A stretch of DNA of 64,000 nucleotides from an uncultured Verrucomicrobiae bacterium (GCA_963719495.1 CAVRCI010000002.1:608001-672000); one strand, 5' to 3'; counted from the first letter of the stretch, positions 33,017 to 59,971 are shown. Notes: generated from the sequence alone by a model not told the origin. Made by a program: numbers and translations.

Positions 33017-33069
33017 AGGGCTGGGTGCTCACTTGACAGCAGCGGTCCGGAGTTTTCACGCTAAGGCCT

Positions 33070-33087
33070 GGCGTTACGCCTAACGCC
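33070..33087. promoter_or_regulatory. Putative LacI operator (inverted repeat)
   Basis: GGCGTTA-cgcc-TAACGCC immediately before the ATG; TTGACA at 33033. Confidence 0.55.
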
Positions 33088-34126: not shown

Positions 34127-34145
34127 TCCCGGTCTTCTTACGAAC

Positions 34146-35555: not shown

Positions 35556-35602
35556 GGCGGGTAATGGTTTGATTTTGGGTTTCGGCGGGGTGGTGAAATC
35601 GT

Positions 35603-36634: not shown

Positions 36635-36639
36635 TCGCT

Positions 36640-36652
36640 CGTTACGTGTATC
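36640..36652. promoter_or_regulatory. Putative LacI operator
   Basis: CGTTACGTGTATC pseudo-palindrome just upstream of the lacI-type start, same relative position as in copy A. Confidence 0.55.
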
Positions 36653-36753
36653 AACCGACTTCGCTTGAGTCAAGGCGACGGTCGAGTATGAGTGGAGAAG
36701 GACGATTTCGGGTGGGGATCCGCATCCCGCCGCGATTCGATCCGCACCTTTCC

Positions 36754-37839
36754 ATGGACACCGAACGACCCACCCTCATCGACGCCGACGTGCACAATGC
36801 CTCGGCGAGCGAAGAATACCTGCCCTACCTCTCCAAGTATTGGGCGGAGCACGTGAAGCGCTACTCCGCCGGGGCCGCGCCCGGGCTCTACCGCTCGCCG
36901 ATCGGCGTGATGCGGGCCGACGCGCAACCGCCCGACGGCGGCATGGCCGGCAGCGATCCGCAGCACGTGATCGACGATCATCTCGATGTCTACGGGATCG
37001 ATTATGCCGTGCTCACCGGCTCGGGGATTCTTGGGATTTCGCTGTGCCCGGATCCGGATTACGGAAACGCCATCGCCTCGGCTTACAACGATCTGCTCGT
37101 CGATAAATGGCTGAATTTCAGCCCCCGCTTCCGGGGTTCGCTTCTCATCAATCACTCCGATCCGGTCGCCGCGGCCAAAGAAATCGACCGCATGGGGAGC
37201 CATCCAGCCATCGTGCAGACCATCATGGCCAGCGGATCGAATCAGCTATTCGGTCAGCGGTTCTACCATCCGATTTACGAGGCCGCCGAGCGCAACGGAC
37301 TCCCCGTCGCGGTGCATCCCGGGACGGAGGGGAACGGCATCGCGGGACCGCCGACCCCGGCCGGGTATCCGACGCGTTACATGGAATGGCACAACATCCT
37401 GCCGACGAATTACATGGCGCACCTCAACAGCCTCGTCTGCGAAGGCGTCTTCGAGAAATTTCCGAAGCTTAAATTCGTCGCGATCGAGGGCGGCGTGGCG
37501 TGGTTGCCGCACCTGATGTGGCGGATGGACAAAAATTACAAAGCGCTCCGTTCGACCACCCCGTGGCTGAAGCGGCTGCCTTCAGAATACATCAAAGAGC
37601 ACGTTCGCCTCACGACTCAGCCAATCGAAGAACCCGAGAATTCCGAGCACATCCTGCAGATCTTCGAGATGATCGACGCGCACCGGACGCTCATGTTCTC
37701 CAGCGATTATCCGCATTGGGATTTTGACAATCCGAAAATGGCGCTGCCCCGGATGTCGAAGGAATTGAAGGCGCGGGTAATGAGCGAGACAGCCGCCGAA
37801 CTTTACGGCCTGGACACCGTGCCGCCGAAGGTGTCGTGA
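36754..37839 (+). CDS. Amidohydrolase_2-fold metalloenzyme, copy B
   Basis: [23 protein letters not shown]; start reassigned to ATG 36754. Confidence 0.9.
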
Positions 37840-38279
37840 GCGCGAATCCCCAGCCGTCGGGCAAAACCCGTCACCGGGTCGCGAATCGGGACGACATCCC
37901 AGCCGACGCCGGGAAGTTGGTCACCGTGCGGCGCGGCGAGCGGGAAATCGAACTCGGCGTCTTCCGAGTCGGCGATGCATTCCGTGCTTACCGCAACGTT
38001 TGTCCGCACGCCGGAGCGCCGGTGTGTCGCGGGCGAGTGAGCGGGACGACGCTGCCGTCGACCGTTTACGAATACGATTACTGCGAGGAAAAGCGCGTTC
38101 TGCGTTGTCCGTGGCACGGGTGGGAATTCGATCTCCTGACCGGACAACACCTCGTGGACGAAAAATCGAAGCTCAAATCGATCCCGGTGACGACGGGCGG
38201 GGAGCAGGCACCCGCCTCGGAAGATCTCGAATCCTATCCCGTTGAGGACGACGCGGATGGGATCTACGTGCTGCTTTAG
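37836..38279 (+). CDS. Rieske [2Fe-2S] ferredoxin, copy B
   Basis: NVCPHAG...[13 protein letters not shown] overlap with the upstream stop. Confidence 0.9.
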
Positions 38280-44245: not shown

Positions 44246-45340
44246 ATGAGCAGAGACGGAATGAATTACCTGCCGGAGATCAAATCGGCCCCCGTGGTGA
44301 AACCCGGCGAGTTCGTGTTCGCGGCGTCGCACTTCGACCACGGCCACATCTACGCGCAGGTCCGCAGCCTCGTCAACGCGGGTGGCGTCTGCCGCGCGAT
44401 CTTCGAGCCTCGCGCCGAGAAGCTCGAAGGGCTAAAGGATCTCATCGAGAGCGGCACGAAGGTCGTGCAATCCTTCGAGGAACTTCTCGACGATCCGGAA
44501 ATTCAGGTCGTCACGTCCGCCGCAATCCCGAACGAACGGGCCGACATCGGTCTCCGCGTCCTCGACGCGGGGAAAGACTATCTCACGGACAAAGCGCCCT
44601 TTACCACACTCGGACAACTGGAAGCCGTTCGGGCGAAAGTCGCCGCCGTGAACAATCGCTACATGGTGTGTTACTCGGAGCGCCTTTGCAGCGAATCCGC
44701 GTGGCAGGCCGGCGAACTGATCCGCCAAGGAGCGATCGGTCGCGTCCTTCAAGTCCTCAACCTCGCACCGCACAACCTCGCGGCGTCGACTCGACCGGAA
44801 TGGTTTTTCGAGAAGGAGCGATACGGCGGAATCCTCACCGACATCGGGTCTCACCAATTCGAGCAATTCCTCACCTACAGCGGGGCCAGCGACGGAACGA
44901 TCAATTTCGCGCGAGTCGAAAATTTCGGCAATCCGGAGCATCCCGGTCTGGAAGATTTCGGCGAAGCCTCGCTCACTCTCGATACCGGAGCCTCGGCCTA
45001 TTGCCGGATCGATTGGTTCAACCCGAAAGCCTCGCGCACGTGGGGTGACGGTCGGACTTTCGTCCTCGGAGACAAAGGTTACTTGGAACTGCGCAAATAC
45101 ATCGACGTCGCGCGGGATGGCGGTGGCGACCAAATTTTCCTCGTCAACGACGATACGGAATCCGAGATCGAGTGCCGGGGTAAAGTCGGGTTTCCGTTCT
45201 TTGGAAAGTTCATCCTCGACGTCCTCAACCGCACCGAGCACGCGATGACCCAAACCCACGCGCTCAAAGCCGCCGAACTCTCACTCCAAGCGCAGGTGAT
45301 GGCTGACGGGGGCAATGCGCTTACCCGCCAGAGCGCGTGA
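44246..45340 (+). CDS. Gfo/Idh/MocA oxidoreductase
   Basis: DHGHI, GKDYLTDK, YGGILTDIGSHQ. Confidence 0.88.
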   Translation: MSRDGMNYLPEIKSAPVVKPGEFVFAASHFDHGHIYAQVRSLVNAGGVCRAIFEPRAEKLEGLKDLIESGTKVVQSFEELLDDPEIQVVTSAAIPNERADIGLRVLDAGKDYLTDKAPFTTLGQLEAVRAKVAAVNNRYMVCYSERLCSESAWQAGELIRQGAIGRVLQVLNLAPHNLAASTRPEWFFEKERYGGILTDIGSHQFEQFLTYSGASDGTINFARVENFGNPEHPGLEDFGEASLTLDTGASAYCRIDWFNPKASRTWGDGRTFVLGDKGYLELRKYIDVARDGGGDQIFLVNDDTESEIECRGKVGFPFFGKFILDVLNRTEHAMTQTHALKAAELSLQAQVMADGGNALTRQSA

Positions 45341-45342
45341 GC

Positions 45343-46770
45343 CTATAATGGAAAATCGCTGAGGAGAGCGTAAAGCGCGTAGCGTTAGCGGGATGCAGAT
45401 CGCTGATGCGCAGGAGTCGACTCACCCAGAGGGTGAGTCGAAATAGCAGATGGAAGGGGAGGCTGGCCGGAGGATACGCCGGAAGGGAGGTATTAGGCGG
45501 AAGGGGACGAGACGACGCCGGTGACGCAAGAGGGATACTTGATTTTCTTTTTCCAGTTTTTGGAGGCGGGCGGAAGGTGGTAGGAGTTTCTGTCGGCGTG
45601 CCAGTAGAGGCATGCAGGCATCGATGTCACGGTCAAGCCGCTCTTCGACCGACAGGAAGGAGCGCGCATCGGTTACAACCCGCAGAAGCCCGGTCGTCCC
45701 CGTCACTCCTATCACAGTTACTTCGTGGCCAATTTGAGGATGAGCCTGGGAGTGGAAGTCCTTCCGCGCAACGAACACGCCGGGGCGCGGGTGCCGCCTG
45801 GCTGGTCGGAGACATTGGAAGAACTTCCCCGCCACCGCTGGCCGACGTTGGCCCGCGGCGATTGCGGCTGCGGCAACGAAGCGGTGATGCTTGAGTGTGA
45901 CGAACGGGGCCTGCCCTACCTCTTCAAGCTGCGGCACACGGCTAAAGTCAAAACGTTGGTCCAGACCATCATGAGGGCTGGAGCGGCGTGGGAAGGTTGC
46001 GGCGATGGCTGGCAGGCCCTGGAGAGTTCGATCCGTTTGAGTGGTTGGACGTGCGCTCGCCGAGTCGTGCGCGTCCGTGAAAGTCCAGCTCGGGCACCGA
46101 TTCGCGAACCCGACAGGCCCCGGCGCGGTAAGAATCGCCCCAAGCTCAAGGCGAAGGCTGGGACTCCCAAGCAACCCCTTGGAGCGGTAAGTTCGCCATT
46201 CTGAATACTTCACTAGACCCCCTAGCCCACCCCGGCCGCGTCATGGCCGAGCATTACCGCCAACGCGCCGACGCCGAACCGAAGCGCAGATAGACCGCCG
46301 CAGGCAGCCCGAAGGGTGGAGCGCGGCGACATCAGAACGCCGTCGACGAGCTTAAAAAACCGTGGAGCTAGAGGGGTTTCACCTCGCATCGTCTGGCATC
46401 CTGCCGCCTGATGGCCAACCGCATCGCCCCCTTTTGCCGCTGGTGGTGCCTCTCCCTACGCTTCTACGACGATGAGCATCACCGTGAAGCCATCCACTCC
46501 CGACCCATTCTCAAGGCCGGAGTCGCCCGCCAGATCAAGAGCGCCGGTCAGCGCACCGTGCGCGAGAGTATCCTGCACGAAATAGGACATCTCATCGCCC
46601 ACGCCCTCACCCAGATCAGCAACGAGATCGCCTTCATCAGTTCCATCACGGAGCGATGAACCGTGTCCCAACGCTGGCCCCTGCTCCTGACCCGCCTTTT
46701 GTGCCGCTGGCTCGGTGGGAAATAGCTCTCCGAACTGCCTCCCGACACGGCCCTGCTCCTTAGCGGGTGA
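45343..46770 (+). pseudogene. Degraded IS1380-family transposase
   Basis: Fragments THPEGE, PVTQEGYLIFFFQFL, GYNPQKPGRP, RGDCGCGNE, RADAEN..DELK with stops, frameshifts and a large internal deletion. Confidence 0.8.
46278..46334. repeat. 57-bp palindromic miniature insert inside the IS1380 remnant
   Basis: Removing it restores GCC GAG AAC (RADAEN motif); hairpin core CCCGAAGGG. Confidence 0.65.
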
Positions 46771-46962
46771 GAAATCATCCCGGACTTCACCCCCTGATCC
46801 CCGAATCCCGCGAGTCCTCCTTCTTGGCGCTGCTCCTACTCGCCCATTTTCTTCTTTTGGGTGAAAAAGTCGTTAGGCGTTGGATTCGCCGAGTTGCTTG
46901 ATTAGAGCACGGTAGGCAACAATTTTGAGATGTGTATTCGTTGAAAGCGGCTGCTACCCGCC

Positions 46963-48294
46963 CTACGCGAAGACGAAGGAATCGGGTTTGATGGTGTCCC
47001 GAGCAATCCGGCTCAGATAGGCCTCTAGCCAGCGGTTGTGTTTGCCGGAGGCGCTAGCTTGGCGGGCAAGAGCGGTCAGCTTGGCCTTCGGAAGGGCGGT
47101 GAGATTGAGCTCCTTGCGGATGAGTGTGATGCGCTCTGCGAACTCTTCGACGGTGAGCGGTTCCAGGATGAGGAGGTCGGCGTTAAACCGGAAAAGTAGC
47201 TCATCGGGGATCGCGGTTTGGGAATCGAGATCGATGGACCAATCGGTTTCGGCGGAGGAATCGGCCTTGAAACCCATCGAGCGGGATTTGCAGGAGTAAA
47301 GGTTTTGCCAGGTGCCAGCGCCGACGATGAAAAAATTGTCCCGAAACTTCGCCGCGAGTTCGTCAGTCCATTCGGAGAACGGTTCCGTGCGCCCGTCGAG
47401 AACGGCGAAGACTTCCTGACGCAGATGTAGACTCCAATCGGACGAGCCGTTGAGCTTGTCGACTTCGTCGATGAATAGGAGACCGCGGTCATTCGCTTTG
47501 ACGAATGCGGCCAAAGCTTGGGGAGTCGACGGCGCTTGGCGGGCGCTCTCGAGAATCCATGAGCCGCAGTCCGTTCCCATGAAGGCAAGGTTCTGATCGG
47601 CGGAAAACCGGTTCACGAGAGCCGTCTTGCCGGAGCCGGACGGTCCGACGATGAGCGGAATGGGCCGCGTGTCGTAACCCGCCGCGCGGATACGCTTGCG
47701 CTTCATCGCGTAAAACCCCTGGAGCTTGGCTAGCAGCAGCCGTTGCGACTGACTGAGCTGGAAAGATTGACTGGCCGCGGATGGTTTTGGCTGGGTGCGC
47801 TTGAAAAGTCCGACGGCGACGTGTTCGCTGAACGAAATGCGACTCCAACCGACGAGATCAAACGGAGGAAGTGAGCGGGCATCCGGGGAGCGTGTCCAGA
47901 CGAGTGTCATGGGTGTATGCAGATCGAGCTTTAGCAGCGCAGCGATGAGATCGGCGCGAATCGGCAGGTTGTTTGCGAGCCCTGCCTCAAGAGTGTCGGC
48001 GATCAGAAGAACGGTCGCGCGTTCAACTTCGAGCGACACGGGCTTCGTAGCAAAGATGGCATTCAAGTAGCTGAAAACGTGACCGGTGAGTCCGAATCTG
48101 TCGTGGGATTCATTTCCGAGCTGATACAGCGGTCCGCGGTTGTCGCTCGCTCCGATTTTCCAATTGATAACGCGCTCACGGAGGTAGGCGACGTAACAGC
48201 GGAGTTGGACGGTGAGGGCCTTGGCCTCGGCTTCACTGGTGCCGAGATTGTAGGCGATGAGGTCCTTGGTGAGTTCAGTTGTGGTGTTGTTCAT
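46963..48294 (-). CDS. AAA+ ATPase (ClpX/HslU-like motifs) with unknown N-terminal domain
   Basis: LIVGPSGSGKT, LLFIDEVDKL, RQEVFAVLDG, IPDELLFRF. Confidence 0.8.
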   Translation of the reverse strand: MNNTTTELTKDLIAYNLGTSEAEAKALTVQLRCYVAYLRERVINWKIGASDNRGPLYQLGNESHDRFGLTGHVFSYLNAIFATKPVSLEVERATVLLIADTLEAGLANNLPIRADLIAALLKLDLHTPMTLVWTRSPDARSLPPFDLVGWSRISFSEHVAVGLFKRTQPKPSAASQSFQLSQSQRLLLAKLQGFYAMKRKRIRAAGYDTRPIPLIVGPSGSGKTALVNRFSADQNLAFMGTDCGSWILESARQAPSTPQALAAFVKANDRGLLFIDEVDKLNGSSDWSLHLRQEVFAVLDGRTEPFSEWTDELAAKFRDNFFIVGAGTWQNLYSCKSRSMGFKADSSAETDWSIDLDSQTAIPDELLFRFNADLLILEPLTVEEFAERITLIRKELNLTALPKAKLTALARQASASGKHNRWLEAYLSRIARDTIKPDSFVFA

Positions 48295-48342
48295 ACTCCG
48301 CCGAGATACGGAGGTACGTTTTCCACGTTGGGCTTGGGTCGG

Positions 48343-49128
48343 CTACTCGGCGCAGCCGTAACGGCTCGCCCAGAACCGCGCGGTCGCGAGGATCTCGTCG
48401 CCGAAGTCGTCCGGCCACTTCGCGTCGACGTAGAGGTCGATTTGGCGACTCCAGTAGAGACGGGGACCAGCGGGTGTTTCGAAGAGTGACGTCTGGGGCC
48501 AGCGCAATCGGGCGAGGTAGCGGTTAGTTGAAAGCTTGCGCCCATCGCGGCGGGCGGCGACCAGCCGCGTCAGACGGTCGCTGGCCTCGCGACGGCTCAG
48601 ATCGGGATGCACGATCCGGGGCCGGAATAGTCGCTCGTTGAACGGACGAAGGTCATCGATCAGCCCCAGGAATTGCAGCCGCGCTTGATCAGGCTGGCTG
48701 TGCCGGGAAAGAATGTGGGCAACCTCCGCTGCCAGTCCAATTGTCGCCTCGACGCACAGAGTATCGTCGGGATGCGAGAGCAGGTAGTCCGCGATGCGGC
48801 TGTCCTCGAGAGTGCGCAATGCTAATTCTTGGCGGTAGTCGTCGAGCTGACGCTCCCATCTTGGATCCGGTGAAGCTGCGTAGAACGCCCGGTTGCCGAT
48901 AAGTCCGATCTGGTGCACGCGCGGCACACTCAGCACGCTGTTACGAGCGGCAGCGAGGAGCTGTTGGCCGAGACGCTTGAGCAAATCGGGTCGAAGCTCC
49001 GGGCGGCGAGCGAAATAGATCTGCAGGTCCTGACTACAGACCGGTCGCGCGAGTTCCTCCGAAAGGACGCGCACGGATTCGATGAGCCGTGCCTTCTGCG
49101 AACGGAGATGAACCTGCAAAATACTCAC
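48343..49128 (-). CDS. Hypothetical protein, possibly DNA-binding, coupled to the TnsC-like gene
   Basis: GTGA start/stop overlap; 261 aa; no CxxC zinc-finger pairs; helix-helix-wing-like N-terminus (inferred). Confidence 0.65.
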   Translation of the reverse strand: MSILQVHLRSQKARLIESVRVLSEELARPVCSQDLQIYFARRPELRPDLLKRLGQQLLAAARNSVLSVPRVHQIGLIGNRAFYAASPDPRWERQLDDYRQELALRTLEDSRIADYLLSHPDDTLCVEATIGLAAEVAHILSRHSQPDQARLQFLGLIDDLRPFNERLFRPRIVHPDLSRREASDRLTRLVAARRDGRKLSTNRYLARLRWPQTSLFETPAGPRLYWSRQIDLYVDAKWPDDFGDEILATARFWASRYGCAE

Positions 49129-49913
49129 TCGGTGATCAGGTCGCGGAGAACGGTGCTCACCCGTTCCTCATCGACTTCGGCGGTGCCGTGCCGAAGAACG
49201 TAGAGCCGGGCAAAGTAGTTTAGTCGTCTAAGGCTGCCACCGGTCCCGGCGTGGATCAGGGACGCGGTTCTGCGCGCGGTTTTGTCGCCGGAGTTGATGC
49301 GGATGGCGAGTTCGTCGAAGACTGGACTCCACTGACGAAGGGTCGCCAAGCTGAGCGCTGCGGAAAGCGGTTTCCCGTGACAGCAACGCAGTGTGCGGGA
49401 CATCCCCGGAGCGTAATGAGCCAACCAAGTTGCCAATTCAGTGTTGCCGCAGAGAATGGCGCTGAGCCCGTAGTCATCCGAGTGGGCCGCGTCCACCATG
49501 GCGATGAAACCTTTCAGGCCGTCCAAGGGCCAGTGATCGGCTTCGTCGACGAGGAGGAGTTTGATTTCACGGGCTCGAATCTCGCGCAGGGCGAGCTTGA
49601 TGAGCACCTGCAGCGTCAATCCGCTTGGAATCGTGGAACTTCGAATCCCGATGGCGTGCAGAAAATCCCGCACGCATCGCGTGTGGCCCTCCGTTTGATA
49701 CGCGCGAAAGTAGAAGCAATTTGATCCGGGACGACTGAGCTTCCGCTCGACTGATCGGAGCGCGACCGTCTTGCCGATTCCGCTGGGGCCGGTGACCGCT
49801 CCCAGACAGCCGAGCTGGAGGCAATCACTGGCGAGAATTTCGACTTCCTCAAGCAGGGGAATCGTTACGATCCGCTCAAGGGTTGGTTCGGGAGTAGTCG
49901 GAGAGTCTTTCAT
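49125..49913 (-). CDS. TnsC/MuB/TniB-like AAA+ transposition ATPase
   Basis: Walker A GPSGIGKT, Walker B LLLVDEAD, TGGSLRRL sensor; directly downstream of the transposase. Confidence 0.85.
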   Translation of the reverse strand: MKDSPTTPEPTLERIVTIPLLEEVEILASDCLQLGCLGAVTGPSGIGKTVALRSVERKLSRPGSNCFYFRAYQTEGHTRCVRDFLHAIGIRSSTIPSGLTLQVLIKLALREIRAREIKLLLVDEADHWPLDGLKGFIAMVDAAHSDDYGLSAILCGNTELATWLAHYAPGMSRTLRCCHGKPLSAALSLATLRQWSPVFDELAIRINSGDKTARRTASLIHAGTGGSLRRLNYFARLYVLRHGTAEVDEERVSTVLRDLITE

Positions 49914-49971
49914 TTGGTTTAGATACGCGGAGCTTTTGTCGGGGATGGCGGGTCGAGGTAGGAGTGATTAA

Positions 49972-51492
49972 TTACGCCTCGTCCTCGGACTCATCTGGGA
50001 GTTCCGGGATGGTGAGGTCTTCTTCGCCGTTCCATTCTTTTTCCCAGTCTTCGCCGTTGCTCATCGGGATCACTTTGTCGTCCTTGCGGCCCGTCAGCTT
50101 CGACGGGTGTTCAGGCAAGATTCGGCGGGCTTCGCGGATGAGGGCTTTGCGCAACCGAGCCAATTCCTTGGCGCGAACCAGGCGCGCGCTTCCGAGTTGT
50201 TCGGCGAGTTTGGAATTCCCTTCGATCTGGTGAAGTCGCGCGATCAAACGTCCATCGTGGAAGCAATCTGCCTCAGTATCGCCACCTTCCGGGCGCAAAC
50301 GAAGGGTGACGCGCTGACGGACGAGTCCGGCCAACTCGGGCGCGGTCAGGTGTCGACCCGGTCCGATCTCGATTCCATCGCGATTGACGGTTTTCTCAAC
50401 CCGCACCTTGCAGGCTTCGACGACATCGTTGGCGAGAAAACTCAATCCGTGCGCGTCGCAGAGTCCGTCGAGCCACGCCTCGTAAGGACTTTTGCCGAGG
50501 GAGCGATGTTCGCGGAGATGGTAGTCGGCGAGAAACTTCTCGGTGAGGCGAGGGAGGATCGGCCAGGGTAGGGGATTCGCTTTGGCCGCCTGGAGTCCTC
50601 GGTGTTGGTGGGCATATCCGTCGAGATGCCGGAGGAGCTGGTCGCCGAGAGTCCGGAAAAAGCGTTCGATTTTGCCATTACTGGAGGGACAATCGTTCTC
50701 GATCCGCTTCGCTTGGACACCGAGGCGGAGCAGAGCGTCGAGGAAGTCGGCGCTTTTGAAAATGCTGCCATTGTCGGTTTGCACCGTGTTGGGAACGCCG
50801 AGAAACGGGAATCGGTCGTCCTCCGTTGGAAGGATCGCAGTTCTTAACGCGAGAAGTAGGTCGGATGTCGTCGGAGAAGTGCGGACAAGGTGCAGCCGCA
50901 TCACGATGCGCGTGGCGCAGTCGATAATCCCGATGGCCCACGGCTGGAAGAGTTCGCCCGAGACTGGATCGAGGATCCAGACACCGATCTGCGTCGCGTC
51001 GATTTGCCAGCAAGCGTTCGGAGCGGTGTGCTCCTTGCGCTGAACGAGGCCCCATTTTTCGAACAGATGTTTGCTTCCGTGGATCATCATCTCCCGAGCG
51101 TCGGGCGGCAGCTTGGTCACGGCCCGAAGCAGCATCCCGTAGGACGGAAATGACCAACCCTCGCTTTTGGCAATCGGTTCGAGAGCTCGCCAAGCGGCGG
51201 TTAGCGTCGTTCGGCGATGGGTGGCGGTGAACGCCAGAACCCAGGTGAGGCACAGCGAGTCGACCTCGCTTCGACGACCGTTCGACTGGCGGTGATCGAT
51301 CAGCCCATTGAGTCCGCTTTTGGACCTTCGGAGAATCGAGCGCAGCGTCGATTCGGGAATCCCGGCCCGTGCGGCAAATGCTCGGATCGAGAGCTCAGAT
51401 TTCTTGAAACGTTCGATCAGCTGTTTCGCTTCGAAGACCCGGAGTAGTTGTCGTTCGTCAAGAATACCGCCTGGATGATTGGTCGTTTGCAT
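49972..51492 (-). CDS. Mu/TnsB/TniA-like DDE transposase
   Basis: N-terminal HTH; WQIDAT, QTDNGSIF, NGKIERFFRTL triad; YH...HRSLGKSP; KTVNRDGI Mu C-terminal domain; acidic tail. Confidence 0.92.
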   Translation of the reverse strand: MQTTNHPGGILDERQLLRVFEAKQLIERFKKSELSIRAFAARAGIPESTLRSILRRSKSGLNGLIDHRQSNGRRSEVDSLCLTWVLAFTATHRRTTLTAAWRALEPIAKSEGWSFPSYGMLLRAVTKLPPDAREMMIHGSKHLFEKWGLVQRKEHTAPNACWQIDATQIGVWILDPVSGELFQPWAIGIIDCATRIVMRLHLVRTSPTTSDLLLALRTAILPTEDDRFPFLGVPNTVQTDNGSIFKSADFLDALLRLGVQAKRIENDCPSSNGKIERFFRTLGDQLLRHLDGYAHQHRGLQAAKANPLPWPILPRLTEKFLADYHLREHRSLGKSPYEAWLDGLCDAHGLSFLANDVVEACKVRVEKTVNRDGIEIGPGRHLTAPELAGLVRQRVTLRLRPEGGDTEADCFHDGRLIARLHQIEGNSKLAEQLGSARLVRAKELARLRKALIREARRILPEHPSKLTGRKDDKVIPMSNGEDWEKEWNGEEDLTIPELPDESEDEA

Positions 51493-51642
51493 GGGGGCGA
51501 GATACGGAGTGCCTCGGCCAGAGATCTGGACCCGCTCGAGCGATGAAAATTGCCGACTGCTACCGGCGAATTTTTTAAAACGCGCCGAGTAGCCGAACGC
51601 GGGGGGATGCGCGTGGGCTCGTTTGCGAATGACTCTGGCAAC

Positions 51643-54600
51643 TCACCTGGGCCGATAGCGCGAACGAGCAACGGCCGATCTGATCTTGGCAACTTGGCGA
51701 GGGTCGGGCGGCGACTCGAACCGAATCACGACGCGAAGGCGCTTCTGGGAGGCCGCTCGGTGGATCTGGACGATCGCTTCAACAATATCTTTTTCCGGGA
51801 GCGGCGACGGGATGAGGACGTGGTGAGCAACCGGATCTAGAAAGATCGGGTCGGAAGCCAAATCTTCGCTTGAGGTGCTGAGGTGAACATCGTCAGGTCG
51901 GCCAAGGCGATCAATGGGTGCGTTTTCAATTCGTGTGACCTCGCTTTGTAGCGAAGCGGTGGCAGCCAATTCGCCGCTATAGAGCTTGTGGAGACGGCGA
52001 AGCCGATCAAGCCCGGGTTTTTCTCCATTTCTCAAGCACGACTGTTCCAGAGATCGAATCTCGGGATCACCTTCGATTGTCGTGGGTGTGGAGGAGTATC
52101 GATACAGAAACGCGCCGACGTATCGACACATCAACGTGTGGCCCCAAGCGTGGCCGAATGATCGAATCATCGTGGCAAGTCCGTGGATCGGGTTCGGATG
52201 ACTTTCAGCGATTTGGTTCAACTGCCCGATTGCGCGCCAACGGCGAAGACTGTGCGGTTTTGCGAGAGGAAGTAATCGCCGGAGCTGGCGGCGAATCTGC
52301 TGGGTTTGAGACGTGGCTTTCGATGCAAATTGCGAACCCCGCCGGGCCATTGCAAAGAATGGAGCGCCGATCAGCTCAGGAAACTCGGATGTGCTGACGA
52401 AAATGATTCGTTTCGCGGCCTTTGTTTTCCCGCGGCGAACATACATCGTCATAAACGCAGGGTTGCGATTGTCGATGAGCGCGATCAGCGTTTCCGAGAC
52501 CCGCAGTCCGCCGACGATTATCGCCAGCAAGCGCGAACCAACAAAATCGGCCAGTCGGCGGCGTTCCTCCAACGAAACGCCAGCAGGTCGAACATCGATG
52601 TTGCCACGGAAAATCTCGGAGATTGCGTGAAAAACCGTCTCGTCCGTTGGACAATATTCGGGTGCCGACGGCTCCAGCAAACCAGCTGGGCGGCATCGGC
52701 TCATCAATCTTTCCGCCAGCGCTTGGGCCGGACCGGACCTGTGCATGATGGAGAGGGTGAGGTCGTAAAACCGAGAGTATCCTGGCGTGATGCGCTTTTC
52801 GACAACCCAATTGAAGATTTGATCTTCCACCTGTGCAGTCGTCCGATTGGCAGCATCGAAGACGAATGGATATCTCTTTAGTTGGAATGCCCGATCGCTA
52901 ATTGGTTTTATGGAGCGGCGCTTCTGGAACGGGAATTGGTCGTAGTCGGATCCATCCAAATACTGAAGCTGCGAGACACCGATCGCGGCGCGCAGGTCCA
53001 TTTGGTTGAGACCGTCCGGGATCAACTCGGCGAGCGCGGCGGCGACCGGACCTGGCTGCCGCCACCGGCACAATGCGACGGATAGGCGTTGGGTGAGTGT
53101 CAGTGCAAATTCGGGAAAAATCCGTATGCGACGCTGTTCGGTGCGGAGGCGGGTGGCGACTATGCGGCAGATCCCGCGGTGGATGGAGTCCGTTGTTCCC
53201 GTGAGGAGTGAAAAATTGAGAAGGGCCGATCGACCCGCCATTTGTGGATGCGTTCTTTGAACTCGATCCCGTCGATCGAAGATGAGCCGAAGCGACTGAG
53301 ATTTTCTGGGGAACTTGATTGGATAGAACTCCAAGCCGCCAAGATCATTTCCGAACAGCGGCACGAGGAAGAACCAGTCTTCCGAGATCGGGTCCTGAAT
53401 GACGTTTCTCAGGGTCAGGTAGTGGGACGCTTCAACAAGCTGCCGGATCGGCGTGCCCAGCTCGAGGGCAAGCGCAACCAGAAGCCCCGCTCCTGTTTTC
53501 GGTAGAGGCGGCCCGAAGTGGACAGCATGGATCAAGTCCGAACCGATGGAGGATTCTAGTGCGGTGAGAGGCTGAAAGGTGCGACTGCGTGCGTCGAACG
53601 TCAGTTCGCGGTGAGGTGGGGCGCCATTTGTGTGAGACTTGGCCGACTCTGAAAAATTTGGTTTCCGGGCAATCCCGTCGAGCGATCGCCGGAGAGCATC
53701 AACTGCGTCTCCCAATCCGGAATCCTTTTCGAACTGCTCGAAAACCGCCGTGCAGCGATCAAACAGATCTAAATTCGAGAGGGGGAGGAAAGTCGATTCC
53801 CAGCTGGCAGCCGTGTCGTGTCCGCTGAGGGCACCGGTCGCGAAGGGGTCACGATTCTGGCGGGTGATCGCGTTGTAGAAGGCCGTTCGTCCCTCTTGGT
53901 GGGTCGACGTTTTCGTTTTTTGGTCGCGTTTGAGCGACGTTTCCGCCGGAAGAAACGGCTCATCCCCAAAGAAATCTCGCCCGATGCGAACGAGTTCGCG
54001 GGTGGCGTTCGTTAATGGAAGGTAGCGCACTCCGATCGCTCGGTCATTCGCCCACTTGTCCACAATTTGAAGACAGGAGGCGGGGAACGATCTGGCGCAG
54101 TGAGCCGGATTTTCGATCTGGTTTCGGTTTCGAAATCCAATGCCGCCGAGGATGGCGACGAGCGCGGCTCTACATTCGGCCACCGTTCCTGCGGCCCGGG
54201 TCTGATCGATGATTGCATCGAAGAGCTCACGGGATGAGCGACATACCGTGCCATGCGTGTGTTCCGAGAATTGTTTGCTGGAGATCTCGTCTGTTGCCGG
54301 AATTCCGGCCCACTGCTCCAGTTTCCGCACAGTCTTCAGCCAGAGCGTGCGAAGTTCGGAAGATGTCCGGGAAATGTAGGCGCATTCCGTTCCCGATCCG
54401 TAGACCGGATAACCGCGGATCAAACTCAATTCAGCGGCACTGACGCCACACTCGAGAAGTGCCGCAGCGTCGAACGATCGGTGGATGGCGACCGACCGGG
54501 ATGGGATTGGCCCGCACTGAACCGCAATTTCCTTTCGCAGGTAGTCCCGATGGTCCGAGTGCACTCCGGCTGGCAGCTGCTGCGCAATGGATTTTCCCTT

Positions 54601-55509
54601 CTGGACCAAGCCAGCCTTCGCGAGGTCGTTGACGAGGCAGGGGAGCAGCGGTAGCTCGAGAAGGGAAAGCTGAAAGCCCGTGTTGCCGTAGTAGGTGCCC
54701 CCGATTTCTTTGACAAATACCCTGCGTTCCAAGTCGATCCACCCCGGGGCACTTTGGGAAGGCGGCCCTCCGATCTCGCAGTCGAGGAGGTCTCGGTAAT
54801 CGATCGCGTAGTAGATCGACAATTTGGCGAGCGCTGCAAATGCCGGCATCAAGCGGTGGGGGTTTTTCCGGGACAATTTGACGTGAAGGTGACCACTCAG
54901 CGACGCGCAGCAGACCGGTCGAAACTGATCGACGACCGACCAGCGAATGATTCGCCCGTGGGCTGAGCGGGCTGGCTTCGCGTCCTCGAATTTCTCCCAC
55001 GGATCCAGATCTTCCCGCCGCTCCCCGCGGGTTCGCTCGGTAAGAGGGCTGCCTTCCGCGAAAAGCGCAATCATCCGAGACACGGCCGTTACAGTCTTCT
55101 CAGATAATCGGACGTCGCGGCGGTCGAGTAGTCCCGTTGGGCTTGGCAGCTGGAGAGTAAATTCGGCAGCTTGGAGGTGCGTTTCCACCGTTCCGCCCAT
55201 CCGGGTGATTCGCTCTTGGAGCACCAGATGCCTCCGAGCAACCCGAGCGATCATCCCGACTTCGGTCTTCGAGCTTGCCGCATTGAAGTAATCGGGGAGT
55301 TGGTTCACGCAGGTTTGAGCGGCCTGTCTTATCCGGTCGTCCGCCGCGATAGCTCGCAACCAGCCTGGCGTTCCAAGTAGCGAGATGAATCTTTGGAATT
55401 CAAGAGCGCAACACTCGTTGCCAAATCCCGCCTCGGGATGGGCGACTTGCACCCCACGAACTCGAAGCGCGGCGACAGTCGAGGCCAGGGTGTGGCTATT
55501 CATGGCCAT
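51643..55509 (-). CDS. Very large tyrosine-recombinase-superfamily protein (~1290 aa)
   Basis: C-terminal GLRVSE, RGKTKAAKR, HSLRR, FGH...RY catalytic set; upstream degenerate YR-like blocks; start probably ATG 55509 or 55503. Confidence 0.75.
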   Translation of the reverse strand: MAMNSHTLASTVAALRVRGVQVAHPEAGFGNECCALEFQRFISLLGTPGWLRAIAADDRIRQAAQTCVNQLPDYFNAASSKTEVGMIARVARRHLVLQERITRMGGTVETHLQAAEFTLQLPSPTGLLDRRDVRLSEKTVTAVSRMIALFAEGSPLTERTRGERREDLDPWEKFEDAKPARSAHGRIIRWSVVDQFRPVCCASLSGHLHVKLSRKNPHRLMPAFAALAKLSIYYAIDYRDLLDCEIGGPPSQSAPGWIDLERRVFVKEIGGTYYGNTGFQLSLLELPLLPCLVNDLAKAGLVQKGKSIAQQLPAGVHSDHRDYLRKEIAVQCGPIPSRSVAIHRSFDAAALLECGVSAAELSLIRGYPVYGSGTECAYISRTSSELRTLWLKTVRKLEQWAGIPATDEISSKQFSEHTHGTVCRSSRELFDAIIDQTRAAGTVAECRAALVAILGGIGFRNRNQIENPAHCARSFPASCLQIVDKWANDRAIGVRYLPLTNATRELVRIGRDFFGDEPFLPAETSLKRDQKTKTSTHQEGRTAFYNAITRQNRDPFATGALSGHDTAASWESTFLPLSNLDLFDRCTAVFEQFEKDSGLGDAVDALRRSLDGIARKPNFSESAKSHTNGAPPHRELTFDARSRTFQPLTALESSIGSDLIHAVHFGPPLPKTGAGLLVALALELGTPIRQLVEASHYLTLRNVIQDPISEDWFFLVPLFGNDLGGLEFYPIKFPRKSQSLRLIFDRRDRVQRTHPQMAGRSALLNFSLLTGTTDSIHRGICRIVATRLRTEQRRIRIFPEFALTLTQRLSVALCRWRQPGPVAAALAELIPDGLNQMDLRAAIGVSQLQYLDGSDYDQFPFQKRRSIKPISDRAFQLKRYPFVFDAANRTTAQVEDQIFNWVVEKRITPGYSRFYDLTLSIMHRSGPAQALAERLMSRCRPAGLLEPSAPEYCPTDETVFHAISEIFRGNIDVRPAGVSLEERRRLADFVGSRLLAIIVGGLRVSETLIALIDNRNPAFMTMYVRRGKTKAAKRIIFVSTSEFPELIGAPFFAMARRGSQFASKATSQTQQIRRQLRRLLPLAKPHSLRRWRAIGQLNQIAESHPNPIHGLATMIRSFGHAWGHTLMCRYVGAFLYRYSSTPTTIEGDPEIRSLEQSCLRNGEKPGLDRLRRLHKLYSGELAATASLQSEVTRIENAPIDRLGRPDDVHLSTSSEDLASDPIFLDPVAHHVLIPSPLPEKDIVEAIVQIHRAASQKRLRVVIRFESPPDPRQVAKIRSAVARSRYRPR

Positions 55510-56338
55510 CGGAATCCAACGGAGTCGGTTCGATGACTGCGGCGACGATGGGATCCGATCGCAATCGATCAAAGCCGAAGTCTACAAGATGCTGCAGCCA
55601 CCTAAGAACCCGCGCGAACTCAGTGTCGGCGACGGAGAAGCCGTGGATCAGAGTTTTCTCGAGCAGCCCCGGCTGAACTTCGGTGACCTCGAGGAAGCGG
55701 GAGATGACGGGGTTCAGCAGTTCCGGTGGTGTGGTTACACAATGCTCAGGCAGGATCGCTCGCCGTCGTCGTTGCCGCTGTCGGCTGAGAGAAGCCTTTG
55801 GAGCATCCAAGCGTTTCAGGGCGAGGATTACCTCGAAACATCGTTGCAGGTGCTCCAAGGCGGTCGATCGCGGAATCGGCAGAGCCAGCCAGTTTGTGGG
55901 AACTTCCGAGAGCAATGGTTCGCCCCCCGTGCAGGCCGACAGGCCGAGCTGCTCGGCGGATGGCTTTGCATAGTCGCAAGCATTTCTGCTTTTGGTGGGA
56001 TCTGATACGACGGTCGATCTATTCTTACGCTCCGACCGGCGACCGCCCGCTGTCTGCGAACTGGCTTCGACTTCCGAGCCTGCTGCGAGATTGCGCCGCA
56101 ACTTCGGGTCGGTCTTCCGTTCTCTCTTAAACGACCCTAGGACCGAGAAATTGCAACTGGGCGAGGGAAAATCTGCGGCGATCCCCGGAAGCTCCAAAGC
56201 GTCGGACTCCATCAGGGAACGAGCCTGCTGCGCGGCAAGCTTTGCCGCTTTCTCTGCCTGAAGTTTGCGATCGAGCAACGGTGTAATCGCGCTTCTGGTA
56301 AACCCATTTTTGGCGTGGCCTCCGGTAAGTCGTATCAT
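55496..56338 (-). CDS. Hypothetical protein
   Basis: 280-aa ORF whose stop overlaps the likely start of the recombinase gene (ATGAATAG); no recognisable motifs. Confidence 0.45.
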   Translation of the reverse strand: MIRLTGGHAKNGFTRSAITPLLDRKLQAEKAAKLAAQQARSLMESDALELPGIAADFPSPSCNFSVLGSFKRERKTDPKLRRNLAAGSEVEASSQTAGGRRSERKNRSTVVSDPTKSRNACDYAKPSAEQLGLSACTGGEPLLSEVPTNWLALPIPRSTALEHLQRCFEVILALKRLDAPKASLSRQRQRRRRAILPEHCVTTPPELLNPVISRFLEVTEVQPGLLEKTLIHGFSVADTEFARVLRWLQHLVDFGFDRLRSDPIVAAVIEPTPLDSDGHE

Positions 56339-56353
56339 TCACACGAGAGTATG

Positions 56354-56520
56354 ACCGTTTACTTCTGCCGCTACGGACGGCAGGCGCTTTTTCGGAGTAA
56401 TTGACCACCTCTGCCCAAAAGTGACGTCAGAGTAAGAAGGCTGGCTCGGGCCACGTTGGAGTGGAACCGATCGCACACCGTCGACGAAACCGTGACCGTA
56501 AACATTCCGTTACCGTCAAC
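56354..56520. repeat. Cluster of ACCGTnnAC direct repeats
   Basis: Copies at 56354, 56477, 56495 and 56512; the last three are spaced 18 and 17 bp apart. Confidence 0.5.
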
Positions 56521-56898
56521 CCGGCGCGGCCCGTGGCCGCCCATGCGCGAAGATTAACAGAGTAAAGTCCGCTGGGATCACCGCCATTCGTGCGCGGGTT
56601 TCAATGTGTAGCTACACCAAGACGCTTCTTGGTCGCCAATGCCATTTTTAGATTCAACGATTCTCTTTTGCTATTCGCCCGCTTCCCTCGCTCGCTGAGT
56701 CAACGTTTGGGGCAACCGGCCGTTAACGGTCTCGGCCTTGCCGACGACCCGGTGGGCCCGGCTCCAATTTTTTATTCTGGAGCGGATGAAGCCTTCGAGT
56801 CTGCAAACTTTGGGAACCAATAGGGTCGGCACCGAGGATGTTAATATTGTGGTGGCGGCTGAACTACGCTGTCGGGGGAGCGGGGTAACTCTCGCGAG

Positions 56899-59022
56899 TC
56901 AGTCGTGGCGATCGAGCCAGAGAATCATTGTCACGCCACGGGGGTAGTATTTGCTGCCGAGTGGATGTCCGTCGTGGCTGCGGACTTGATCCACGAAGGC
57001 CCAATCCGCGCAGCCCGTCTGCTGCCACTTCGCGTGCGCCCGGTCCCAGCCGGGCGCGTCGGGTGACGTGATGCCGAGGATGGTGTCGTGGACGAACTGC
57101 GAAAGCGCGATTTTGCTCATCCAGGTATTTTGGCTCGTGGAGGAAATCTTCCAGCCGCCGGTGACCGCGTCGATGCAGGTGCCGGTGACGAGGACCGTGC
57201 GAATGTGGGTGGCCAACTTTTGCACCAAGGGGCCGAATCGCCCGTCCGGCGAGACGGCGTCGGCGTCGTCGAGGAACCACGGGAAGACGAGCCCCTCGAT
57301 GGCGGGGATAATTGCCGACTCCTCGTTCTCTCCGATCACCGCAGGGAGTCGGTCGCGCTGTTCGTCGAAAGCGCCCACGATGGTCGCCGCGGCCAGGGCG
57401 GCCTGGTGTTCCGTGGCTTCGGCGAGAGCGGTGCGGTCCAGACTCCGGAAGGCGTGGGAGAGCGCGACGCAGGCGGCCCACGTTTTCACGGCCAGATAGA
57501 CGTTTTGCCGGGCCTGGCCGAGGCTGGAGTCGAGGCTGTCGTAGGTGGTGATCTCTTGACCCAGCGTGCCGCACCGCGACGAGTCGAGGAGCATGATCCC
57601 GGTGCGTTTGCCCGGATCGGGATGGTCGCGGCTGAGTAGGCTATCGAAGGTTCGCGCGAGAATGGGAGCTTGCTCGCCGAGCCAATTGGGATCGGGGGAG
57701 CGAAGTCCGTAAAGGGTGGCGCAGAGGATGAAGTTCACGAGCTGCTCGTGGGTCATGTGACTGAAACATCCGGGCTTGTCGGCCAGCTCGTAGCTGGACC
57801 AGCCGGGGGGCGTGAATTGATTGGCGATACCCATGTCGTGAGTGAACGAGATGCCGCCGGGCGACGGCTCACGGTCCGCCAGGACGTTCTGCGTGGTGTC
57901 CTCGTAGGAATAGGTTTCGACGAATTGATCGAGCACGTTTCGAACAGCCCAGGGGAAGTAGCGGAGTTCGAAAAACAGGTGGTCGACCGTGAGGTCGAAG
58001 GTATTCATCATCCGATACTCGCCTTCGTTGACGACGTAGAGCGGCTGGCCGGTGACGGTGTGCCGAAGCAGCTGGGTGCTGCCGAAGTAGCTGTGAGTGG
58101 CGTGGGCGAGGAGAAATTGGCGGTCCGCGTTGAGGTCGCTGGCGGCGAGTTCCGCCTCGCGTTCGGTGCAGACTCGGCGGAGGTCCGGTGCGCGGGTGAG
58201 GGCGGTGCGCAGGACGTCTTCGAGGTCGGCGTAGTGCTGGGTGTAGAGGTAATCAGTCGGAATTCCACTGGTGACTGTGCCGTCAAGGTAGAAGCCGAGC
58301 GCGACCGTGAAGGTACGAGTGGTCCGGGGCGGCACCCGGAACAAGAGTCCGCCCTGGCCGACGAGGCGGTGGATTTCCCCTTCGCCCGTGGCGACGGTCC
58401 TGGCGGTGTTCCAGGTGAGAATTTCCTCGGCGTCGGGCGTGGTGGCCTCGACGGCCAGACCGTAGCGGGGGCCGGAGGCAACGCCGAGTAGCTCGCCTCC
58501 GGTGGTGTCGGAGAGGAGGCGGAGGGGGCTTTCACCCTTGGTACCGATGCCGAAGTAGGTCCAGGCCGGGTGATCGGAATCGCGGTTGTCGAGCGTGATT
58601 TCCGAGAGAATGGCGGGGAGAATCGCGAGACGGAACTCTCCCGCCGGGGCGGTGGCGGGGTCGGCGACCGGCCCGAAAGGAGTGAGGAGGCGGAACGTCA
58701 GGTCGCTCGCCGACCACGCGTCGGTCGTCCAGCCAAGTGAGCGATCGATCTCGTCTTTCGAGAATACGCGCCAATGCTCGAAGGAGCCGTGGTCGCTGGC
58801 GGCGTCCTCGAGGGCGAAGTCGGCTTTCGACGCCGTGTAGCCGGAAAAGAACGGCAGCGCGCGCGGAGTTTCACCCTCCCGCGAGTAGGCGACGTAAACT
58901 TCCTGATCGGCGGGGCGACCGAGTTCGAGGCCGAATCCGCCACCGACGCCGTGGCGTCCGAGGGTGAAGCTGGAGTGGGCACCGAAGGGGCTGTGGTGGG
59001 CGTGAAAGTCGTTGGAGATCAT
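56899..59022 (-). CDS. GH52 beta-xylosidase
   Basis: HHSPFGAHSSFTLG, VNEGEYRMMNTFDLTVD, SFTHDMG, EITTYDSLDSSLGQAR, SKYYPRG; start reassigned to ATG 59022. Confidence 0.93.
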   Translation of the reverse strand: MISNDFHAHHSPFGAHSSFTLGRHGVGGGFGLELGRPADQEVYVAYSREGETPRALPFFSGYTASKADFALEDAASDHGSFEHWRVFSKDEIDRSLGWTTDAWSASDLTFRLLTPFGPVADPATAPAGEFRLAILPAILSEITLDNRDSDHPAWTYFGIGTKGESPLRLLSDTTGGELLGVASGPRYGLAVEATTPDAEEILTWNTARTVATGEGEIHRLVGQGGLLFRVPPRTTRTFTVALGFYLDGTVTSGIPTDYLYTQHYADLEDVLRTALTRAPDLRRVCTEREAELAASDLNADRQFLLAHATHSYFGSTQLLRHTVTGQPLYVVNEGEYRMMNTFDLTVDHLFFELRYFPWAVRNVLDQFVETYSYEDTTQNVLADREPSPGGISFTHDMGIANQFTPPGWSSYELADKPGCFSHMTHEQLVNFILCATLYGLRSPDPNWLGEQAPILARTFDSLLSRDHPDPGKRTGIMLLDSSRCGTLGQEITTYDSLDSSLGQARQNVYLAVKTWAACVALSHAFRSLDRTALAEATEHQAALAAATIVGAFDEQRDRLPAVIGENEESAIIPAIEGLVFPWFLDDADAVSPDGRFGPLVQKLATHIRTVLVTGTCIDAVTGGWKISSTSQNTWMSKIALSQFVHDTILGITSPDAPGWDRAHAKWQQTGCADWAFVDQVRSHDGHPLGSKYYPRGVTMILWLDRHD

Positions 59023-59134
59023 GGGCGAGGATGGCTTTTTGGTTGGATGGATTGGCTGAGAGCGGGGTGGGGTTCGTTGGCGATCAAGAGAAAATGGAAT
59101 TGGAGAGTTGGGAGCGTCGAGACGGGAGCGAATT

Positions 59135-59971
59135 TCAGCCTTTGACGGCACCGGAGCTGAGGCCGCGGACGAAGAGTTTGACCGTGAACATGAACAGCAC
59201 GAGCAGCGGAATGCTCGCGATGAAGAAGGCGGCCATGATCTTGCCCCATTGCTTGACGTATTCGCCGTCGAGGTAGATCAACCCGACGCCCAGAGTGAAG
59301 AGGTCCTCGTCCCGCAGCAGGATGAGCGGCATGAGGAAGTCGTTCCACGCGGCGAGGAACGACAGGATCGCGAGCGTGCCAATGATGGGACCGCTCATCG
59401 GGATGACGACGTTGAGCATCTGCTGAAAGTGGGACGCGCCGTCCATTTCCGCCGCTTCGAAGAGGTCATTCGGGATGTCTTCGATGAAGTTGCGCAGAAC
59501 GTAGATGTTGAAGACCTGCACCCCGGAGATGCCGAGGATGACGAGCGCCCAGAGCGAGTTGAGGAGGTTGAGATCTTTGAGCAGCGAGAAGAGCGGGACG
59601 ATGTTGGCGACGCTTGGCATGAGCATCAGCACGAGAAACGCGGCCCAGATCACGCTGGCGAACGGCATCTTGTAGCGGGCGAAAAAGTACGCGGCCATGA
59701 TCGCCATGAAGAGGCCGACGGCCGTGCCGGTCACGGCGACGAAGGTCGTGTTCGCGACGTAGGGCAGGATGAGTTCGAGGCCGAACGCCCAATTTTCCCA
59801 GTGCCACTCCGAGATTGGCGACGGCAGCCAGGGGTTCCGGAGGAACTCGGCGTTATCCTTGAAGCTGACCTGCAGCATCATGTAGAGCGGGAAAAGCTCG
59901 ACGGCGACGATGCCCCAAATGAGGAGGTGCTTGGGGAGTTCGCCGCTCCGCCGCTGGGTCTGGTCGCTCAT
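59135..59971 (-). CDS. Carbohydrate ABC transporter permease (MalG-like)
   Basis: EAAEMDGAS loop, WNDFLMPLI, GAVKG end. Confidence 0.92.
   Translation of the reverse strand: MSDQTQRRSGELPKHLLIWGIVAVELFPLYMMLQVSFKDNAEFLRNPWLPSPISEWHWENWAFGLELILPYVANTTFVAVTGTAVGLFMAIMAAYFFARYKMPFASVIWAAFLVLMLMPSVANIVPLFSLLKDLNLLNSLWALVILGISGVQVFNIYVLRNFIEDIPNDLFEAAEMDGASHFQQMLNVVIPMSGPIIGTLAILSFLAAWNDFLMPLILLRDEDLFTLGVGLIYLDGEYVKQWGKIMAAFFIASIPLLVLFMFTVKLFVRGLSSGAVKG

Follow-up and report, generated by a model that had tools for sequence, protein, structure and literature searches.

The window studied here is a stretch of 64,000 nucleotides from an uncultured Verrucomicrobiae bacterium (GCA_963719495.1, CAVRCI010000002.1:608001-672000), and at about 46.9-56.9 kb it carries an element of about 10 kb that is a single operon and belongs to a family that is rare in Verrucomicrobiota. 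Coordinates refer to the whole 64-kb stretch, except those given after an L number, which designates related loci from genome or metagenome contigs; W is the window locus. Open reading frame (ORF) analysis recovered six co-oriented ORFs, all on the minus strand and spanning 46963-56338, in the order given by the original prediction, which had been made from the sequence alone: g280, giant tyrosine recombinase (YR), DDE transposase, ATPase, g261 and AAA+. The two start/stop overlaps reported there are also present, one of 8 nt between g280 and the YR (55496-55503) and one of 4 nt between the ATPase and g261 (49125-49128), and the 150-nt gap from the YR stop to the DDE start holds a GC-rich hairpin at 51552-51567, a gap that three other loci lack, their ORFs overlapping there. 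Pfam domains were found in three of the six proteins (DDE, ATPase and AAA+), and homologues present in other genomes show the operon genes to be real. The features of the element are:

56339-56898, minus strand: repeat-rich leader from the GH52 gene to g280, a candidate res/att or end region
55496-56338, minus strand: g280, a low-complexity, basic, disordered protein of 280 aa, placed by its ORF and position
51643-55503, minus strand: giant YR of 1,286 aa, by its conserved catalytic set, profile and model
49972-51492, minus strand: DDE transposase of the TnsB/TniA/MuA type, 506 aa, by Pfam, PADLOC, PHROG and profile
49125-49913, minus strand: ATPase, a TniB/TnsC/MuB-like AAA+ regulator of 262 aa, by AAA_22 and PHROG 296
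48343-49128, minus strand: g261, 261 aa, an N-terminal winged helix with a helical remainder, by AlphaFold2 model and position
46963-48294, minus strand: AAA+ ATPase of the classic clade, 443 aa, by Pfam PF00004 (1.1e-8)
46891-46962, minus strand: trailer with a small hairpin and GAATACA, by similarity to L026 and to copies in a metagenome-assembled genome (MAG)

The giant protein is a tyrosine recombinase, as had been predicted, and its identity emerges from the family as a whole. Its ORF runs from a TTG over 51643-55572, and the database form, from the ATG at 55503, has 1,286 aa. The single sequence gave no match in Pfam (E ≤ 0.01, including PF00589 Phage_integrase), NCBIfam or the PDB, and word-based homologue searches with the sequence or the alignment recovered only the protein itself. 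The family profile matched XerA in the PDB (5hxy, E = 2.7e-4), in an alignment that brings the R, K and HxLR motifs together, and in the ESM Atlas the 30 counted matches form one family set (score 0.96), the three displayed being giant ‘Tyr recombinase’ clusters. Six homologues from related loci align over their full length at 21-26% identity, and R1001, K1026, R1087, H1118 and Y1128 are invariant in the 6-sequence alignment, position 1084 being H or Y. Run exhaustively with HMMER against 1.84 billion protein representatives, the profile had 169 matches (E ≤ 1e-3), 78 (E ≤ 1e-10) and 41 (E ≤ 1e-30) as the threshold was tightened; about 30 of these span the full length, with 1,000-1,460 aa, whereas the weakest are ordinary proteins of 200-450 aa aligned only at profile positions ~1000-1175. 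Counted over the non-gap sequences of a 52-sequence alignment, the C-terminal site is kept almost throughout (R1001 in 48/48, K1026 in 45/48, R1087 in 48/48, H1118 in 44/47 and Y1128 in 46/46), and by these residues it looks catalytically active.

An AlphaFold2 model of residues 1-1146 (predicted local distance difference test score, pLDDT, 86.9; predicted template modelling score 0.86) has a C-terminal unit that resembles Cre and XerH, as well as another YR-like module. Foldseek with the whole model gave no match at E ≤ 0.001, its top matches being YRs at E ~ 0.1 with unrelated large proteins further down. Aligned on the model with VIA-align, residues 865-1146 form a core-binding plus catalytic unit that resembles XerH (Z 11.4-11.6) and, at Z 7.7-8.6, Cre and the Tn1549 Int (both ~8.5) and lambda Int. 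Residues ~79-406 make up the second module, which holds Y376 and resembles an archaeal Xer (Z 11.2, root-mean-square deviation 8.4, residues 79-399), the catalytic domain of SSV1 integrase (Z 9.0, deviation 3.6, residues 191-398) and Flp (Z 8.1). Conservation outside the C-terminal site is equally marked, with Y376 in 38/38, R458 in 43/44, K483 in 42/44, R539 in 49/49 and H562 in 45/49. The last four belong to a middle region (residues ~420-620) whose secondary-structure elements follow one another as in a YR catalytic domain, and this R-K-R-H set suggests that it is a third YR-like module. In the middle region the expected site of the tyrosine, ten residues past H562, is occupied by F or S, and the first module (~79-406) has kept its tyrosine and lacks the R/K/H set; we infer that the two have degenerated in complementary fashion, possibly leaving a composite active site assembled from both.

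Within the transposition core, the transposase carries the Pfam domains rve, HTH_Tnp_Mu_2 and Mu-transpos_C, matches TnsB_V-K of PADLOC (1.7e-18) and PHROG 310, transposase (5.8e-51), and, as a 19-sequence profile, finds the TnsB of ShCAST, a type V-K CRISPR-associated transposon (CAST), as its best match in the PDB (7.3e-29), followed by Tn6677 TnsB (9.6e-16); D165, D240 and E276 are invariant in the 19 sequences. The ATPase matches Pfam AAA_22 (6.7e-15) and the MuB-type PHROG 296, ‘DNA transposition protein’ (2.2e-18), gave no match to Pfam TniB, and has a Walker A motif at G42-K48 and a Walker B motif at D123-E124, both invariant in seven sequences. No TnsA, TniQ or Cas protein was matched among the six operon proteins with Pfam, NCBIfam or PADLOC, in keeping with the original prediction. 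A search of the bacterium's own genome (98.6% complete) with Pfam TniQ and TnsA_N (PF08722) also gave no match, and control genomes were equally silent.

Whether the YR and TnsBC genes keep company in other genomes was a point on which the original prediction had staked itself. Relatives of the DDE transposase were found at 12 loci in genome contigs and 64 in metagenome contigs, mostly distant rve proteins, and synteny was counted wherever the DDE is intact and ≥44% identical and the contig reaches ≥2.7 kb upstream of it; this leaves out L005 and L028 (<200 nt upstream) and L029 (a 5'-truncated DDE, no YR). A giant YR adjoins the DDE gene in 8/8 qualifying loci (W, L003, L004, L006, L007, L025, L026 and L027), L025 and L027 appearing to be the same element as L026, and every locus with this arrangement lies in Verrucomicrobiota or in a metagenome contig. 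The complete six-gene order is present in W, L003, L004 and L026, and L006 ends after g261. In L003, L004 and L026 the YR ORF runs up to or into the DDE ORF, so that there is no room for a transposon end between them. The modules also occur apart. L008 (184-7631, DDE 41%) and L030 (DDE 33%) have a DDE-ATPase-g261 core with neither YR nor AAA+, and at L008 another rve transposase gene precedes the core, while a gene for a serine resolvase follows g261 at a distance of ~1.3 kb. At L097 (13935-17540) a 1,201-aa YR relative at the contig end is followed by glycosyltransferase genes, and at L098 (7250-13329) a 372-aa gene, a distant 1,317-aa YR relative and a NERD nuclease gene stand together, neither locus containing TnsBC. 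Both the YR and the DDE profile were run against one set of 401 genomes sampled from the phylum, and neither matched any but the window's own genome.

The YR and the DDE transposase co-evolve. Pairwise identity matrices over 15 pairs of six elements gave a Pearson correlation of 0.93 (Spearman 0.81) between YR and DDE divergence and a Pearson correlation of 0.97 between the ATPase and g261, the two blocks being uncorrelated with each other. Thus, the YR and DDE of L003 are nearest to those of L004 (57.9% and 79.9% amino acid identity), and its ATPase and g261 are nearest to those of L007 (89.2% and 64.7%). Because the two blocks diverge independently, the elements are mosaics with a breakpoint at the DDE/ATPase junction. 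L003, L004 and L007 are three divergent copies held by a single MAG, G433; the AAA+ genes of L003 and L004 share 94.5% DNA identity, and the rest of the two elements 64-72%, and the contigs all break within this region or just past it. The same junction accommodates further DNA: ~1 kb in L004, an extra ORF in L007, and in L026 two genes, for a metallophosphoesterase and a kinase-like protein, with direct repeats of ~60 nt on either side (11474-11640 and 13180-13345). These repeats contain a GGGATTT...AAAATCC inverted repeat, CCTCCAGTAAG and the ATPase translation-start region, and the arrangement looks like a site-specific cassette insertion.

The original prediction had asked whether three genes, the YR, g261 and AAA+, are conserved neighbours of the transposase, and this is so for the YR in the loci counted above, and for g261. 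The latter lies directly after the ATPase in every core (W, L003, L004, L006, L007, L008, L026 and L030), and it thus occupies the TniQ position of Tn5053 and V-K CASTs. It gave no match in Pfam, NCBIfam, PADLOC or PHROG, and 0/7 members of its family matched Pfam TniQ at E ≤ 5. In the AlphaFold2 model (pLDDT 84.4) residues 3-90 resemble many winged-helix proteins (best Z 6.8, the level of a common fold); Foldseek gave no match at E ≤ 0.001, the best ESM Atlas score was 0.76, and the fold search, which lists only generic winged-helix domains, is a weak guide to any remote kinship with TniQ. The protein is probably a DNA-binding adaptor or a target selector.

For the AAA+ gene such conservation holds in part, as it follows g261 in W, L003, L004, L007 and L026 and is absent from L008 and L030. 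Its AAA domain covers residues 214-326, after ~200 N-terminal residues that have no family assignment, with weak PDB matches to spastin, Vps4, Rpt3 and ClpX and only insignificant AAA-type matches in PADLOC. Homologues also occur outside the element (L109 3650-5107, L111 9904-11679 and L110 ~11373-12104), with Thg1-like, AAA_33 kinase, SNase, PLD, metallophosphoesterase and HD genes as neighbours, a context that is like that of defence islands, and the protein of our element is either a remodelling factor or cargo. At the other end of the operon, g280 gave no match in Pfam, NCBIfam, PADLOC or PHROG. Positional counterparts of 247-325 aa and 17-21% identity precede the YR in L003, L004, L006 and L026.

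The limits of sequence similarity among these loci lie in the leader and the trailer, which is why we regard the mobile unit as the operon with a leader of a few hundred nucleotides and a short trailer. The leader contains adjacent perfect 14-nt direct repeats (56490-56503 and 56507-56520), an inverted 14-nt copy with two mismatches (56722-56735) and a 12-nt palindrome (56606-56617), the count of such 14-mers over the whole window being near chance (27 found against 17.5 expected). A motif common to W, L003 and L004, TTACTCTGT, lies on the minus strand at 56557-56565, and the similarity between L003 and L004 ends upstream, ~30 nt before their copies of it. In the leader of L026, a 16-nt sequence recurs perfectly in direct orientation at a distance of 320 nt, and there are two repeats of 15 nt, one direct and one inverted. 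Repeats of this kind make the leader a putative res/att or end region. At the opposite side, GAATACA (minus strand, 46933-46939) lies at +24 to +30 past the AAA+ stop in both W and L026. L107 and L108, from one MAG, are ~90% alike over the 3' end of the AAA+ gene, a terminator-like hairpin and ~20 further nt, and their sequences are unrelated from ~66 nt past the AAA+ stop; by analogy, the window element probably ends less than ~70 nt past its own.

The search proposed earlier for an empty site, ends, a 5-bp target duplication or an att core produced none of them. No empty site was recovered, the GH52 flank having only 42-49% protein identity in the nearest genomes and the flanks of L004 giving only short matches of ~70%. 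The insertion contexts differ from locus to locus (GFO oxidoreductase/GH52, Pyr_redox/rhodanese, ArsR/GH43, STAND NTPase and TOTE primase-helicase), and a search for a target gene, tRNA or att-like direct repeat common to them found none. Among public sequencing runs, one DNA run held 0.20 of the sampled words, with no RNA run among the matches listed, and the run contigs were 200-380-nt pieces identical to the window. A sequence of ~75 nt at L004 ~3714-3788 has copies of 81-92% identity on G433 contigs C7, C30 and C119; one copy lies ~840 nt past an element's right flank, and the sequence may be a small dispersed repeat.

On either side, the flanks look like host DNA. Two GFO/IDH/MocA oxidoreductase genes end at 45340 on the left, and a GH52 glycosidase gene occupies 56899-59151 on the right. 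The G+C content of the operon is 0.55-0.62 against 0.62-0.67 in the genes either side, measured beyond the adjoining intergenic stretches of lower G+C, and the genome carries a single copy of the element. No CRISPR-array-like repeats were found in 45300-57000, and a promoter/terminator scan of the locus stayed at chance level. Between the left flank and the operon, beside the trailer and outside the element, lies the decayed IS1380 next door that had been described before:

45400-46690, plus strand: decayed IS1380 remnant, by an NF033539 match with broken frames

The match covers 45611-46201 (E = 3.3e-12; 45.8 bits, the cut-off being 180), with interrupted reading frames around it; a related copy, from a public metagenome run, ceases to match at 46690, the end of the insertion sequence, and blastn of the remnant against plasmids gave no match. 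Elsewhere in the window there is a large inverted duplication (31470-38279), with arms at 31564-33011 and 36738-38185 that are 79% complementary and further arm pairs at 33388-34126/35603-36341 and 33124-33345/36384-36604, which look like a pair of paralogous gene clusters, diverged from each other and in opposite orientation.

The explanation that we favour, and that we hold to be about evenly poised between right and wrong, is that of a replicative Tn5053/Tn7-like element whose own YR resolves cointegrates. The DDE transposase, the ATPase and the winged-helix g261 would form a TnsA-less core, set in one operon with the giant YR, g280 and AAA+. Where TnsA is lacking, only the 3' ends would be cut and joined, and for that reason transposition would be replicative and would yield a cointegrate, which the YR would resolve at a site inside the element, most likely in the leader upstream of g280. 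The role of the YR would then be that of the ‘TnsR’ of other tnsA-less Tn7-like elements. Judged by its residues, resolution would fit the YR better than target selection, since the catalytic set is conserved, unlike that of the inactivated TnsF, and the serine resolvase of L008 is the alternative to be expected if the YR fills the resolvase role. Several points weigh against this explanation. With 1,286 aa and two or three modules, the YR is far larger than any resolvase we know of, and its size points to functions beyond the resolution of cointegrates. No terminal inverted repeats, repeat arrays or TGT/ACA termini stood above the shuffled background in W, L026 and the MAG copies, in a search for subterminal ~20-bp repeats that did not fix the exact ends, so that degenerate sites may escape it; no matching flanks of a target duplication were seen at the candidate boundaries tried, and the run contigs contained no joint across the element, empty site, circle or cointegrate junction, the own genome having just the one copy. 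At L007 (6425-9913) the YR gene is inverted, being read away from the DDE gene on the opposite strand with 55 nt between the two starts, and its product has 1,162 aa, without the C-terminal extension, with no detectable g280-like gene at the locus. As the loci were collected via the DDE transposase, the synteny count is ascertained from one side, and the 15 identity pairs behind the YR-DDE correlation are not independent. Finally, the occurrence of the YR family without TnsBC (L097 and L098) means that the YR may be an autonomous integrase.

That last point leads to a different role for the same protein, as an integrase/excisionase or as an active target selector of the Tsy kind, and not as a resolvase. 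The element would then have two routes of mobility, or the YR would bind or recombine the target site and recruit TnsC-TnsB. The giant YRs without TnsBC, which have a small upstream gene each time, are consistent with such a role, as are the lack of TniQ and the likeness of a multi-module YR to two-YR systems; YR-derived target selectors are known, and Tsy needs two active YRs, according to the work that describes them (Faure et al. 2023, PMC10293859). Co-evolution of YR and DDE is likewise expected if cis sites are common to both. An insertion context that is different at every locus, without a common target gene, tRNA or att-like direct repeat, speaks against an integrase or selector, and so does g261, which holds the TniQ position in all cores, even those without a YR. 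We consider this role, the main rival to the resolvase, possible but rather unlikely. The YR and the TnsB might also be partners in one reaction. In this variant the YR would be a fused hetero-multimer with two catalytic centres that replaces the TnsA step beside the co-evolving TnsB: one centre may be the canonical C-terminal site and the other a composite, Flp-like one, in which the first module may supply Y376 to a pocket formed by R458, K483, R539 and H562 of the middle module. The YR may then supply the second-strand processing or excision that is TnsA's step in Tn7, it and TnsB would co-evolve because both act on the same element ends, and it may further take up cargo cassettes where the element is prone to recombination, at the DDE/ATPase junction, as in L026. 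We deem this unlikely; if true, it would be a transposition pathway that needs both a DDE transposase and a YR.

The remaining two explanations deny the operon its unity or its mobility. It is quite unlikely, in our judgement, that the locus is a transposon no longer, its parts having been domesticated or immobilised as a system for DNA rearrangement or conflict, such as an inversion or cassette switch driven by the YR. Such a system would account for the lack of transposon ends, the single copy in the window genome, the inverted YR gene of L007, the AAA+ homologues among defence-like genes (Thg1, SNase, PLD, metallophosphoesterase and HD) and the L026 cargo between DDE and ATPase with its ~60-nt direct repeats either side. 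It sits badly with a patchy distribution (1/401 genomes of the phylum), with one MAG that has three divergent copies in different contexts, with a G+C content of the operon below that of its flanks and with intact DDE and Walker motifs, and PADLOC gave no significant defence match. The original prediction had itself raised the last explanation, a TnsBC transposon inserted by chance in an unrelated YR integrative element. That the modules can occur apart (L008 and L030 without YR, L097 and L098 without TnsBC) would allow it, but adjacency recurs among YRs that are only 17-36% identical, bar one pair at 58%, the abutting or overlapping ORFs leave no space for a transposon end, and YR and DDE divergence is correlated. 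We therefore reject chance nesting as highly improbable.

A replicative element with its own recombinase would have a bearing beyond this bacterium. Work is under way to turn Tn7-like cores into tools for DNA insertion, and the cointegrates of TnsA-less systems are a practical problem, for which a natural core with a dedicated recombinase represents one way in which nature may handle them. The YR family is rare, its chains of ~1,200-1,450 aa pack two or three YR-like modules, and the apparent complementary loss of catalytic residues in two of these makes the assembly of a YR active site within a single chain testable. The mosaicism between the YR-DDE and the ATPase-g261 blocks carries the notion of modular target-selection units over to a new lineage.

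Among known systems, Tn5053/Tn402 comprises tniA, tniB, tniQ, tniR and a res site, TniR being a small serine resolvase. Our element is like it in the order of DDE, ATPase and third protein, in having no TnsA and in having a dedicated site-specific recombinase, and the distant relative of the core at L008 has a serine resolvase, as Tn5053 does. It differs by its giant YR, placed ahead of the core within one operon, by a g261 that Pfam does not identify as TniQ (0/7), and in that terminal repeats and the 5-bp duplication were not found. ShCAST shares with it the TnsB, its best structure and PADLOC match, a small TnsC-like ATPase and the absence of TnsA, whereas no Cas12k, CRISPR array or TniQ was found here and a YR is present. 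Cut-and-paste Tn7 differs by TnsA, to which none of the six proteins gave a match. In Tn554 (TnpA/TnpB), in strand-biased circularizing integrative elements (IntA/Tfp/IntB) and in recombinase-in-trio elements, the YRs are encoded by separate genes, with no DDE transposase; likened by description only, our element has, as these multi-YR elements do, several YR-fold units, here apparently in one polypeptide.

There are also elements in which a YR-fold protein with tandem YR-like domains is tied to transposition. According to Faure et al. (2023, PMC10293859), the TnsF of Tn6022 is an inactivated YR with zinc fingers that selects comM, and Tsy has two active YRs, both required, and no Tn7 genes. 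Tsy is made up of YRec, HTH and a TnsF-like YR. Unlike TnsF, the giant YR keeps its full C-terminal catalytic set; the zinc fingers of TnsF are N-terminal, and no specific search for these was made in the giant YR. Unlike Tsy, which targets comM without TnsBC, our element has TnsB and TnsC homologues, flanks other than comM and no common target gene. A close parallel is offered by Tn7-like transposons without TnsA. According to Benler et al. (2021, PMC8649781), tnsA is uncommon in the TnsB clade of Tn5053 and V-K CASTs, TnsA-less Tn7-like transposons with tyrosine or serine resolvases (‘tnsR’) are described, tnsA-less elements probably transpose replicatively via a cointegrate, and five Verrucomicrobia host species are listed. 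The statement that the architecture matched none recognised was thus too strong, and the kind of element is already known, because those elements follow the same logic: a TnsB-type DDE transposase, an AAA+ regulator, no TnsA and a tyrosine recombinase of their own. Our element differs from them by a giant YR of 1,286 aa with two or three modules that escapes Pfam, by the lack of a recognisable TniQ/TnsD, by the additional classic AAA+ protein and by the absence of detectable subterminal repeat arrays. Within the literature searched, no published giant YR joined to TnsB was found, and the supplements of PMC8649781 may list some. What is new is the giant multi-module YR, g261 in the TniQ position, the extra AAA+ gene and the block mosaicism of a family that otherwise follows the plan of the tnsA-less elements.

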